A DNA stretch of 64,000 nucleotides, from the NCBI RefSeq assembly GCF_057098645.1, contig NZ_CM169472.1, one strand, 5' to 3'. Made by a program: the position numbers and the translations under genes. The notes beneath the pieces are model-generated. The model saw only the letters and a list, made by a program, of their open reading frames with translations, was not told the DNA's origin and made no database searches. How positions within the stretch are numbered: the first letter of the stretch is position 1; each line of letters opens with the position of its first letter. Shown one piece after another: positions 1 through 3,180 of the stretch.

Positions 1-1002
1 GGCACGTTTGCCCTGATCGCACTCACCGAAGCGCTGGAACAGGCGAAGCGTAAAATCAAACGCGACGGCGATGAGTTGGGCATGATCATGGGGATGTCCC
101 GCGGCCCGCAGGAAACCACCTACAAATATCTGCAAAGTCTGAAACCCGATCCACGCAAAGTACGTACGTCGGAATTTCCTGGCTCGCTGATGAATGCGAT
201 CCCAACGTTCTGCGGGATCTCTGAAGGGATCAAAGGGTATACCACTACGCTTGCGACAGGGGAAAACTCGGCGCTGGGCGCGCTGACCTACGGTTATGAA
301 ATCGTCCGGCAGAACCTGCAACCGCAGGTATTGGTTGGCGGCGCGGATGAGTACTTCCCGTCTATGTCGCTGTATATGGATGCGGTGACGCAAAAGATCC
401 ACATGACGGCTGAGGCGAGCGACTATCAAATTTACGGTAAAGATCCGCAGGGTTATGTTCCGGGCGAGGGTGCCTGCATGCTGCTGCTGGAAGATCCACA
501 GTTGGCTGCGGCGCGTGGCGCTGAGGTTCTCGCGGAAGTGGTGGGCTACGGTAAGTCATGTAGTAATACCTACTTCGACGCCTCATTGTTGGAAGAAAAA
601 TCCGCGTCGATGGCGCTGGCCATTGAACGCGCCCTTACGCATGCGGGCATCTCTGCTGGCGATATTGATTTGGTATGTGGTACCAGCAACGGCAGCGATG
701 ACCATTCTCGTATCGAAATTGACGCCATTTACAACACCTTCGCCGCGCAAAACCCGGCGGTGCCGGTAGTGAACTACAACGCTTGCTTTGGTTTTGTCGC
801 CTCTGCCGCTGGTTTGCTTAACCTCGCCGTGATTACTGACTGCATTAAGAAGCAGGCAGTACCTGCGATTCCAAATACGGTGGAATTCTTTGATGAGCGT
901 GTGAATTTTGTACGCCAGTCGATGAAACTTGCGCTGAACCATGTCCTGCTTGTTGGCGCAACGGAAGGCGGCAACTACTACGCGTTCGTCATTAAGGGAT
1001 AA
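1..1002 (+). CDS. Ketosynthase-like protein, 5'-truncated by window edge; catalytically degenerate (chain-length-factor-like)
   Basis: Frame 1 is open from nt 1 to stop at 1000-1002. Collinear with FabF-type KS by manual alignment, but active-site Cys position reads LATGENS (Gly), first His motif reads CGTSNG, second reads NACFGF. Confidence 0.6.
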   Translation, partial: GTFALIALTEALEQAKRKIKRDGDELGMIMGMSRGPQETTYKYLQSLKPDPRKVRTSEFPGSLMNAIPTFCGISEGIKGYTTTLATGENSALGALTYGYEIVRQNLQPQVLVGGADEYFPSMSLYMDAVTQKIHMTAEASDYQIYGKDPQGYVPGEGACMLLLEDPQLAAARGAEVLAEVVGYGKSCSNTYFDASLLEEKSASMALAIERALTHAGISAGDIDLVCGTSNGSDDHSRIEIDAIYNTFAAQNPAVPVVNYNACFGFVASAAGLLNLAVITDCIKKQAVPAIPNTVEFFDERVNFVRQSMKLALNHVLLVGATEGGNYYAFVIKG

Positions 1003-1006
1003 GACT

Positions 1007-2230
1007 GTGGACAATGCCGCTATTATTTCGGGTTACAGCGTGTGGATGCCGTATGCCGAAGACTGTTCGCAGTTAATTGACAATCTGAAACAGGGGAAAC
1101 GCGTTGCGCGTAAACCCTGGTTTACCTCCGACGAGGAAGCCATTAAATGCGGGTTTAAGGGTAATCCGTCAGTGGCGACGTTGAAACAGGTGGACGATAG
1201 CGCATTGGACCTGCTGTCTCAGTTGATCGACGAAGCCCTGGAACAGGCAATGCTGGATAAGCATTGCCTGGCCGGGCGCAACGTTCGCGTTTATCTGACC
1301 GGTATTGGGCCGCGTATCGACGGGCTGGATTACAAATCTTTCTATAATTACAACGATGTAGAAGATATCAACTTAACGCAATCCATCACAAATCTGCATG
1401 CCTCGAAGATGTCGCAGGACACGATTTCAAGCCATCTTGCGCGCAAATATCGCTTGCAGTATTTGCCGCCTAACATGAACTGCACCAGTAACTCGTCACT
1501 GACTGCGGTTCATCTGGCGACGCAGGGCATTGAGCAGGGCGGGATTGATCTCGCTATTGTGCTGAACTGTTCGAAAATTAAAACCCAGGATATCTGGTTC
1601 CTGGAAACGCAATCGATGCTGGACAGCGAACAAGTTCAGCCGTTTGGTGAAAACAGTAAAGGTGTGGCGTTCGCAGAAGGGTTTAGCGCGCTTCTGCTGG
1701 AAAGTGCTCATCACCGCCGGGCGCGTCAACAAAGTGAGGGCGTAAGGGTGCAAACAACTTACACCCAAATCAGCGCGGGCCGCAGCAATGATGCCTCCTG
1801 GCTTAGCACTAACGTGCACAAGGTCATGCAGGCCGCGATGAAGCAGGCTGAAATTGCGCTGGAGGATCTTGCAGCCATTCTTCCACACGGCAACGGTTCG
1901 GCAGTGAGCGATAACGCGGAAGCCAAAGCCATCACCATGTTCGCAGGGGAGCGGCAGATCCCCGTTCTCGCCTATAAAGGGCAGATCGGCTATACCGCAA
2001 CCGGATCTGGTGTTGTCGATCTGATCATTGGTCACCATTCGTTGACGCATCATCAACTGATCGCACCTGTTGGCAACGACGTCATTATCGACAGCATGGC
2101 TTCGCTGGTACTTACGGACTGCAGCGTGACAAACCATAGCAAACGCCATTTGCTGAAGGTCGGTGTGGGTGTCGATGGTTCGGTTATTGGCGTTGTCATG
2201 TCAAACAGGCAAGCGGGGCGCGCGAAATGA
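1007..2230 (+). CDS. Beta-ketoacyl synthase-like protein (Cys and first His retained, second His replaced by Tyr)
   Basis: ORF 941..2230; likely start GTG 1007 with AAGGGA 7 nt upstream. Motifs NMNCTSNSSLTAVHLA (active-site Cys), PHGNGS (His), KGQIGYTATGSG (Lys kept, His to Tyr). Confidence 0.6.
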   Translation: MDNAAIISGYSVWMPYAEDCSQLIDNLKQGKRVARKPWFTSDEEAIKCGFKGNPSVATLKQVDDSALDLLSQLIDEALEQAMLDKHCLAGRNVRVYLTGIGPRIDGLDYKSFYNYNDVEDINLTQSITNLHASKMSQDTISSHLARKYRLQYLPPNMNCTSNSSLTAVHLATQGIEQGGIDLAIVLNCSKIKTQDIWFLETQSMLDSEQVQPFGENSKGVAFAEGFSALLLESAHHRRARQQSEGVRVQTTYTQISAGRSNDASWLSTNVHKVMQAAMKQAEIALEDLAAILPHGNGSAVSDNAEAKAITMFAGERQIPVLAYKGQIGYTATGSGVVDLIIGHHSLTHHQLIAPVGNDVIIDSMASLVLTDCSVTNHSKRHLLKVGVGVDGSVIGVVMSNRQAGRAK

Positions 2231-3180
2231 CGGAAAAGAGTATCTACCTGTCTTCCTGGGCGCTTACGGAACCGGACGACATTTTTTATTTTTATCAGCC
2301 GACCTGGCTCAACGCCTGGGAAGCACATATGTACGAAAGAGGATTATACGGCACCCGTGCTAATGGCTGGGGGCTGAAGCGCTTTGGCGTGGAGAACGAT
2401 ATTTATGCGCCAGAACGGATCCGTAATCCGCAATATATGCCCTACCTTGAGGCGATGGAGCAGGTGACCGATTCTGCATTACAACAAATGCCGACTAAAG
2501 AACGCATGAAGTTAATGAAATCGCGCACGGCATTTATTTATGCCGATTCCTGGGGGGAATCCGGTCCGTTTGAAAAAATTTCCAGTGCGCTGCATATCGC
2601 CACTATTGATACGCTTCCCAAGAATTTACTTAAAAAGTTTTCGATAACGGAACCGACTTGCAAGATTCGCGGCGAAAAACAGGCATTCGTTCAGGCGCTG
2701 CGTATGGCGCAGGATTATCTCGCCTGGGATGTATTCGATAACGTGGTGATTTGTGCTGCCTATCGGGCAATTCCGGTGCTGGTATTCTCTGAAAAAGATG
2801 TGGGTAAACCGCCTAAGCGTTTATTTCCCCGTCGTGCTGATGAGGTGAATTTATCTGTTGAACGAGTGGGTTGTTTTATTCTCAGCCAGCGTGAGAGCGC
2901 CATCAGGTTGCAATGCGGGGAATATCATTCCGGCACTGCGCCACAGCATGCTACGGATATTGATGTCATGGCCTTCAGCGAACGGCAACAAATGCTGTCC
3001 CGACCTGCTGCTGGCGTTATCGACCTGGTGGCCCATTACGGTGAAAGCGGTTGTCTGACGCCCGCGCTGAGTATGGATTATTTAACCCGTCATACTCAGC
3101 CCGGTGGAAAAATGCGTACGGTCATTGCCGATAAACAGTTTGGTTATCACTACTTTGACCTTGAATACCTTGAAGGATAA
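2227..3180 (+). CDS. Short ketosynthase-like / thiolase-fold protein (317 aa), function unknown
   Basis: ATG 2227 overlaps upstream stop (ATGA). Weak collinearity to KS: EPTCKIRG (Cys region) and EYHSGTAP (His motif). Confidence 0.45.
   Translation: MTEKSIYLSSWALTEPDDIFYFYQPTWLNAWEAHMYERGLYGTRANGWGLKRFGVENDIYAPERIRNPQYMPYLEAMEQVTDSALQQMPTKERMKLMKSRTAFIYADSWGESGPFEKISSALHIATIDTLPKNLLKKFSITEPTCKIRGEKQAFVQALRMAQDYLAWDVFDNVVICAAYRAIPVLVFSEKDVGKPPKRLFPRRADEVNLSVERVGCFILSQRESAIRLQCGEYHSGTAPQHATDIDVMAFSERQQMLSRPAAGVIDLVAHYGESGCLTPALSMDYLTRHTQPGGKMRTVIADKQFGYHYFDLEYLEG

Follow-up and report, generated by a model that had tools for sequence, protein, structure and literature searches.

We analysed a stretch of 64,000 nucleotides from contig NZ_CM169472.1 of the NCBI RefSeq assembly GCF_057098645.1 (hereafter the window), which opens with three consecutive frames on the same strand. 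As an earlier note on this DNA had proposed, Pfam and fold searches placed all three in the ketosynthase (KS)/thiolase superfamily. These open reading frames, called ORF1, ORF2 and ORF3 in their order, lie within the first 10,000 bases of the window, which form the distal half of a gene cluster resembling those of fatty-acid synthases (FAS) and type II polyketide synthases (PKS). The earlier note saw in the three frames a graded loss of catalytic residues over three paralogues. The simplest reading of our results is a different one, namely that four thiolase-fold modules, one of them encoded upstream of the window, make up two pairs, each with a KS-type subunit and a partner resembling a chain-length factor (CLF). 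Pair 1 is a single fused protein whose second half is ORF1, and pair 2 would consist of ORF2 and ORF3. The explanation that we favour as a whole, with a probability of roughly 0.5, is that both pairs form the condensing core of a dedicated lipid pathway of the type II FAS/PKS-like kind, in which pair 1 elongates the chain and pair 2 transfers or releases it.

NZ_CP148349 (locus L001) was used as the annotated reference copy, a window position being the L001 position minus 19,000. ORF1 did not prove to be a separate gene. It corresponds to the last 333 residues of the 852-residue protein WP_025380316 (L001 17444-20002), whose gene begins 1,556 nt before base 1. Pfam detected PF00109 (E 3e-16) and PF02801 (E 3e-9) in the ORF1 part, and two complete PF00109+PF02801 units, at residues 6-358 and 413-811, in the whole protein. 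On NF005589 the protein scored 436 for a cut-off of 387 and thus passed for the ketoacyl-ACP synthase II (KAS II) subfamily, while its N-terminal domain, with 454 bits, failed the equivalog TIGR03150 (fabF; cut-off 493.75). Domains were aligned by MAFFT to the FabF of the strain itself (L002), and HMMER alignments to solved KS structures served as a cross-check. At the positions of FabF C163, H303, K335 and H340, the N-terminal KS carries Cys (ATACTAS), His (AHGTGT), Lys and His (TKSYFGH). All four residues were kept in 36/36 loci, and 151 of the 405 positions of this domain (37%) were invariant. At the same positions the C-terminal domain carries Glu (LATG-E-NS), Thr, Asn and Phe, and MAFFT and HMMER agreed on this. 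The Gly that had been assigned to the Cys position is therefore one residue off; the claim that both His and the Lys are missing was borne out, the first His being Thr, the Lys Asn and the second His Phe, and no Cys-His-His set appeared in this domain by alignment. Over the 36 loci its Cys position was variable (Glu in 20, Ile in 5, Gln in 4, Val in 3, others in the rest), the first His was replaced by Thr or Ser, the second by Phe, Leu or Ala, and the Lys was Asn in 36/36. By these residues, the domain fused at the C-terminus acts as a CLF-like partner without catalysis of its own.

ORF2 matched PF00109 (4e-12) and PF02801 (7e-12) more weakly than the 852-residue protein did, yet clearly. Its best NCBIfam score was 63 bits for a cut-off of 629, and its identity to FabF was 16% (MAFFT). 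At the four FabF positions we found Ser (NMNCT-S-NSS), His (PHGNGS), Lys and Tyr (YKGQIGY), an assignment for which HMMER alignments with KS structures, that of DEBS among them, were used as well. The first His, the Lys and the Tyr in place of the second His had already been recognised in the earlier note, but the catalytic Cys that it saw as retained lies two residues off, the true position being occupied by Ser. Conservation was followed in 39 loci, 36 of them obtained by scanning species-representative genomes with the ORF3 alignment and three reached through distant ORF3 homologues. Ser, His, Lys and Tyr were each present in 39/39 loci. Cys159, two residues upstream of Ser161, was found in 32/39 and replaced by Ser, Gly or Ala in the seven others. 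This Cys of the motif NMNCTS was rejected as the nucleophile, both for its incomplete conservation and for its place two residues before the elbow. Invariant positions are few in ORF2 (23/407, 5.7%), and they include S161, H294, K324 and Y329 as well as the KS-conserved D302 and E305; if invariant positions were distributed at random, finding all four catalytic-position residues among them would be expected with a probability of about 1e-5. The GFGG loop has Val, Leu, Met or Ile in place of Phe across the loci and contains Asp or Glu. ORF2 is thus fast-evolving and yet keeps a specific site. In a KS pocket, invariant Ser and His side by side would most simply be a nucleophile/base pair.

ORF3 was hardly visible to sequence methods. 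Neither the single sequence nor 34 family members matched Pfam, and ORF3 had no match in NCBIfam or, using phmmer at E<=10, among the PDB sequences. When the family profile was run against the PDB sequences, the sole meaningful match was the CLF AntE (E 0.01). By hhalign, the ORF3 family was not significantly similar to KS-N (E 0.43) or to the CLF-like family (E 0.15), and reached E 1.6e-4 with ORF2. Its identity to FabF was 18% (MAFFT). An AlphaFold2 (AF2) model built from the 34-member alignment had a mean predicted local distance difference test score (pLDDT) of 91 and a predicted template modelling score (pTM) of 0.91. The model has a thiolase fold, and a fold search placed it nearest to KS-CLF and CLF structures. 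Aligned to ORF2, ORF3 presents Lys151 at the nucleophile position, within the family motif CKxRGE[K/R], and the residue is Arg or Lys across the family. There are 24 invariant positions (7.6%) and none of them is Cys or His. Judged from the sequences and the model, ORF3 is a shortened thiolase-fold protein, presumably dead as a KS. The shortened KS-like protein of the earlier note was accordingly recovered, without the Cys-like and His-like motifs that had been read in it. In sum, the Cys equivalent to FabF C163 occurs in none of the three window frames (Glu in ORF1, Ser in ORF2, Lys in ORF3) and solely in the N-terminal domain encoded upstream of the window. Likewise, no window frame combines both catalytic His with Lys335, the residues being Thr/Phe/Asn in the ORF1 domain and His/Tyr/Lys in ORF2, with no conserved His in ORF3.

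The ORF3 family is a small one: 1.84 billion proteins yielded 47 representatives at 50% identity, with members in Enterobacterales, Acinetobacter, Aeromonas and Neisseria. A decaying pseudogene was considered and rejected, since ORF3 is present in every locus, intact in nearly all and holds its 24 invariant positions; the exceptions are L027, with two ORF3 pieces, and L008, where it is short. In L039 (Serratia rubidaea), L008 (Mixta mediterraneensis) and L027 (Enterobacter cloacae) the KS-CLF gene, ORF2 or ORF3 appears fragmented, which could reflect pseudogenes or sequencing errors. Many ORF3 homologues are named 'ATP-binding protein' or 'hypothetical protein' by NCBI. Neither Pfam and NCBIfam nor the fold and the conserved residues speak for nucleotide binding, and the name 'ATP-binding protein' looks like an annotation artefact; the CLF-like assignment corrects these database names.

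To which KS does ORF3 belong? The two genes are translationally coupled: the stop of ORF2 and the start of ORF3 overlap as ATGA in Escherichia coli, and the overlap is 4 nt in Acinetobacter equi and 14 nt in L004. In the metagenome locus L005, ORF2 and ORF3 are one 784-residue protein (P0153) in the same cluster context. A paired AF2 model was computed from ORF2 and ORF3 concatenated as a single chain, with an alignment in which each pair came from one locus. It reached a pLDDT of 84 and a pTM of 0.89, and superposed on the KS-CLF didomain of PfaC over 656 residues. On this model ORF3 is the CLF-like partner of ORF2, the two forming a predicted heterodimer, and not the odd third paralogue that the earlier note had made of it. 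ORF1, being already fused to its own active KS, is not the partner of ORF2. The earlier idea of a KS accompanied by a dead partner, as in type II PKS and aryl-polyene systems, thus survives in general, but with other partners than ORF1 and ORF2. Both pairs combine a KS with a thiolase-fold paralogue that has no catalytic Cys, fused in pair 1 and encoded by ORF3 in pair 2. The KS subunit of pair 1 has the Cys-His-His triad and that of pair 2 does not (Ser/His/Tyr in ORF2), so that pair 2 resembles a KS/CLF in its architecture without being a canonical member.

Both pairs stand in a 16-gene cluster that is syntenic in about 40 loci of at least 10 genera, with loci in Enterobacter, Kosakonia, Mixta, Klebsiella, Serratia, Proteus, Providencia, Erwinia and Acinetobacter. 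Upstream in L001 are acpS and the genes of a FabG-like short-chain dehydrogenase/reductase (SDR), a FabZ/ApeI-like dehydratase, an acyl carrier protein (ACP) with the phosphopantetheine-attachment motif DSV, and a GcvT-like aminomethyltransferase. A dedicated ACP, a FabD-like malonyl transferase, a ketoreductase and a dehydratase are therefore all found in one cluster. Together, the predicted functions cover all of chain extension on an ACP, keto-reduction and dehydration, and add a group of Lol-like proteins for export. Family searches recognised no thioesterase, acyltransferase, KS III or adenylating enzyme among the cluster proteins, and no enoyl reductase in the E. coli version. Three cluster proteins, of 218 residues, of 462 residues and YcdU, had no family match.

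In the pathway that we propose, AcpS of the cluster would convert the ACP to its holo form and the FabD-like enzyme would load malonate. Pair 1 would then extend the chain on the cluster's own ACP by decarboxylative Claisen condensations, and the FabG-like reductase and the FabZ/ApeI-like dehydratase would process each round. Since the E. coli version has no enoyl reductase, the chain is probably unsaturated or hydroxylated. ORF2:ORF3 would be unable to form a thioester acyl-enzyme and would thus not act as a second elongating KS; this and the second His that is always Tyr make pair 2 unlikely to be a condensing KS at all. Ser161 and His294 of ORF2, aided by Lys324 and Tyr329, may rather receive the acyl chain from the ACP in oxyester linkage and then transfer it to an acceptor, and the LolCDE/LolA-like proteins may move the product outward. 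Acyl transfer or release is favoured for pair 2 because the pathway has no recognised release or transfer enzyme. Pair 2 would then be a non-condensing, Ser-dependent enzyme for ACP-bound chains, and to transfer or release as its specific step we give a little less than even odds.

A wider proposal is more tentative. ORF2:ORF3 may represent an unrecognised class of KS-derived heterodimer with a non-condensing Ser/His/Lys/Tyr site, used for transfer, release or another reaction, which together with a GcvT-like folate enzyme builds a new exported envelope lipid; this pathway would be genetically linked to a two-partner secretion (TPS) exoprotein in enterohaemorrhagic E. coli (EHEC) O157:H7 and many Enterobacterales. 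The two KS/CLF-type pairs are a defined and testable case of repurposing of the KS scaffold, in which one partner is invisible to sequence methods. They also make a surface lipid a candidate product of an important pathogen as well as of Klebsiella, Enterobacter, Proteus, Serratia and Acinetobacter.

Several points weigh against transfer or release by pair 2. Literature searches found no biochemical or genetic data on any of these proteins. The heterodimer comes from a single-chain AF2 model, and AF2 may place any two thiolase-fold domains as a canonical dimer. Across the loci, identity is 27-71% for ORF2 and 28-65% for ORF3 versus 51-86% for the KS-CLF fusion, which fits a non-catalytic role too. 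YcdU or one of the other proteins without a family might be the real transferase. Finally, within a KS scaffold, decarboxylation of malonyl-ACP or weak condensation would suit a Ser/His pair equally well.

Decarboxylation would make ORF2:ORF3 a priming enzyme that converts malonyl-ACP to acetyl-ACP and so starts each chain, like KSQ domains or a Gln-bearing CLF. The His and Lys of Cys-His-His synthases have been implicated in malonyl decarboxylation by studies of KAS I/II mutants, and in ORF2 His294 and Lys324 are invariant although the Cys is replaced. Moreover, the fused CLF-like domain, variable (Glu, Ile, Gln or Val) at the Cys position, is unlikely to prime by itself, and the cluster has no FabH-type/KS III or adenylation gene. 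The host FabH could however prime in trans. ORF2 has Ser instead of Gln at the Cys position and Tyr at the second His in every member, and an invariant Ser makes more sense as a nucleophile than as a bystander. We consider a priming decarboxylase unlikely.

The low conservation could also mean that ORF2:ORF3 is an inert pair of pseudo-enzymes. Such a scaffold or gauge would bind the ACP or the chain under construction and might, for instance, determine how long the chain becomes or deliver it to the exporter. CLFs are in general non-catalytic partners, every KS catalytic residue is lost in ORF3, and the share of invariant positions in ORF2 and ORF3 is far from the 37% of the active KS (5.7% and 7.6%). 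In the same sense, the cispentacin partner AmcG 'lacks the functional motifs' (PMC10698177). However, the four catalytic-position residues, Asp302 and Glu305 all belong to the 23 invariant residues of ORF2, which is difficult to account for unless there is an active site or at least a specific ligand site. An inert pair seems to us rather improbable.

Weak condensation would leave ORF2 as a KS that still condenses, a second KS for elongation or initiation comparable to ApeR beside ApeO-ApeC, with Ser161 or Cys159 as the nucleophile. Cys-to-Ser mutants of KS retain some activity, and Cys159 is present in most loci. Aryl-polyene clusters do have two KS systems with complementary chain-length ranges (PMC8358021). 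Against this, Cys159 is replaced in seven of the 39 loci, condensation requires the second His, which is Tyr throughout, and the GFGG loop has lost its Phe and acquired an acidic residue, which leaves a condensing ORF2 little credit. The pairing put forward in the earlier note, with an inactive ORF1 as CLF-like partner of a Cys-containing KS ORF2 and with ORF3 as an extra decaying paralogue, agrees with gene order and with a general KS/CLF resemblance but is very improbable, given that ORF1 is fused to its own active KS, that ORF2 has Ser and no Cys, and that ORF3 is conserved in every locus, forms one protein with ORF2 in one of them and is its predicted dimer partner.

We compared the two pairs with known systems. 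The closest architectures are the KS-CLF didomain of PfaC and the heterodimers of highly reducing type II PKS. What sets the present system apart is the Ser/His/Lys/Tyr site of ORF2, the minimal 317-residue partner and the gene set with its GcvT-like and Lol-like members. PfaC KS-CLF (PDB 6RIW) shows 10-13% identity to the present proteins in structural alignments. In PfaC, dehydratase domains follow the KS-CLF within a multi-domain megasynthase, whereas here the other activities are discrete proteins. A polyunsaturated fatty acid (PUFA) synthase (Pfa) was rejected, because the 852-residue protein ends after its CLF-like domain, no Pfa genes lie nearby and the omega_3_PfaA score was 81 bits for a cut-off of 1010.

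Among highly reducing type II PKS, the relatives are Iga11/Iga12 of ishigamide (6KXD), AmcF/AmcG of cispentacin and ApeO/ApeC with ApeR of aryl polyenes (APE; PMC8358021). AmcF keeps its active-site Cys146 (PMC10698177). Unlike these KS subunits, ORF2 has Ser and Tyr in place of the Cys and the second His. To our knowledge, the KS subunit keeps the active-site Cys in all these highly reducing systems (ishigamide, aryl polyene, cispentacin). APE clusters have an ApeH-type adenylating starter enzyme, a thioesterase, a lysophospholipid acyltransferase (LPLAT)/glycosyltransferase and an MMPL-type exporter beside ApeO/ApeC/ApeR. An aryl-polyene cluster was rejected here, as none of these accessory families occurs among the cluster proteins, which instead include the GcvT-like and the LolD/LolCE/LolA-like ones.

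Aromatic type II PKS (actinorhodin, 1TQY; AntD/AntE, 6SMO) form the same pseudo-dimer of a KS and a Cys-less paralogue from adjacent coupled genes. Gln at the Cys position of the aromatic CLF primes by decarboxylation. Neither partner here conserves this Gln, the position being Glu or variable in the fused domain and Lys or Arg in ORF3. The cluster is reductive and has no cyclases or aromatases, and an aromatic type II PKS was rejected. The N-terminal KS is 34% identical to E. coli FabF (KAS II) and keeps all FabF catalytic residues; it differs in being fused to a dead paralogue and in belonging to an accessory island that brings along a separate ACP, AcpS and FabD. PF00109 and PF02801 of the FabF/FabB class are found in both halves of the 852-residue protein and in ORF2, and ORF3 joins them by its fold alone.

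There are natural precedents for a condensing scaffold of the thiolase fold in which the Cys is replaced. DpsC of daunorubicin biosynthesis, an acyltransferase of the KS III type with a Ser-His-Asp site, uses Ser for acyl transfer, and KSQ loading domains use Gln for decarboxylation. DpsC structures were among the Foldseek matches of ORF3. Being a homodimer from the FabH/KS III branch, DpsC differs from ORF2, which is of the KS I/II type by Pfam and is predicted to be a heterodimeric partner. KSQ domains have Gln and keep both His, unlike ORF2 with its Ser and with Tyr at the second His.

The features identified in the first part of the window are collected in Table 1.

Table 1. Genes at the beginning of the window, with the basis of each assignment.
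Feature	Position	Strand	Basis
C-terminal CLF-like dead KS domain of the 852-residue KS-CLF fusion (ORF1)	1..1002	+	Frame open from base 1; RefSeq coding sequence WP_025380316; Pfam
ORF2, 407 residues, GTG start, KS-like, Ser161/His294/Lys324/Tyr329	1007..2230	+	Pfam, HMMER, MAFFT
ORF3, 317 residues, cryptic shortened thiolase-fold protein, predicted CLF-like partner of ORF2	2227..3180	+	Start overlaps ORF2 stop (ATGA)
LolD-like ABC transporter ATPase	3191..3898	+	NCBIfam TIGR02211 LolD 228 bits, under cut-off; RefSeq annotation
Conserved 218-residue protein, signal-like N-terminus	3882..4538	+	No NCBIfam match; syntenic in all loci; signal peptide read from sequence
FtsX/MacB_PCD-type permease, LolC/E-like	4539..5849	+	NCBIfam TIGR02212 lolCE 92 bits, under cut-off; Pfam MacB_PCD and FtsX in orthologues
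LolA-like/TP_0789-like periplasmic carrier	5858..6646	+	RefSeq 'outer membrane lipoprotein-sorting protein'; PF17131 in orthologues
Conserved 462-residue secreted protein, possible outer-membrane component	6643..8031	+	Signal-like N-terminus and aromatic C-terminus read from sequence; no family match; syntenic
FabD-like ACP S-malonyltransferase	8042..8986	+	TIGR00128 178 bits; RefSeq annotation
YcdU, polytopic membrane protein, last gene of the conserved cluster	8983..9969	+	RefSeq annotation; syntenic in most loci; no family match
tRNA-Ser (GGA), where the island meets the core genes ghrA-ycdX	10162..10249	-	ARAGORN; RefSeq annotation

Bases 1-10,400 of the window were 98-100% identical to complete E. 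coli chromosomes. At least 80% of this region was present in 381/5,426 complete E. coli genomes, including O157:H7 and O55:H7 strains, and some part of it was matched in 5,425/5,426. We suspect that the part common to nearly all genomes is the end from ycdU to tRNA-Ser(GGA), beside the core genes. In that case ycdU may be the remnant of a once larger locus, or the edge of the island insertion. In L001 the region stops at tRNA-Ser, ghrA, ycdX and the csg operon. By its flanking genes and its carrier strains we equate the region with O-island 47 of EDL933 (z1528-z1556), which reviews treat solely for its regulator GrvA (PMC8565820, PMC10877973). Literature searches found nothing on the gene cluster or its product. 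The EHEC O157:H7/O55:H7/O145 lineage has O-island 47 as a marker, and half of this island would consist of a complete and conserved pathway of lipid synthesis and export.

Further observations concern the neighbours of the two pairs. The GcvT-family gene (L001 16210-17370, upstream of the window) stands between the ACP gene and the KS-CLF gene in every locus, and its product scored 135 bits on the GcvT model, well under the cut-off. No precedent was found in the literature for a GcvT-like enzyme in a type II FAS/PKS-like cluster. Directly upstream of acpS, L001 carries a TPS exoprotein with a TPS domain of the filamentous-haemagglutinin type and a ShlB/FhaC transporter (L001 8640-14160, upstream of the window). 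Besides E. coli, about 25 loci from other genera have the TPS pair in this place (L003, L006-L030 and others), and in L004 and L041 the TPS gene is at the opposite end of the cluster. This suggests that the lipid pathway is functionally linked to a secreted adhesin or cytolysin.

A distant clade of loci (Serratia, Edaphovirga, Erwinia and others; L004, L005, L032, L034-L036, L039-L041) has a second SDR gene between the permease gene and the LolA-like gene. Its product is 22-27% identical to the first SDR and could be a second reductase, possibly the enoyl reductase absent from the E. coli clade. In the L001 strain, the permease gene (L001 23539-24849) has an internal stop, and ycdU (27983-28970) and ghrA (29484-30423) are marked as frameshifted. 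The corresponding frames of the window, including that of ghrA (10444-11421), are intact, so that the window comes from a different strain or from a cleaner assembly than the near-identical L001.

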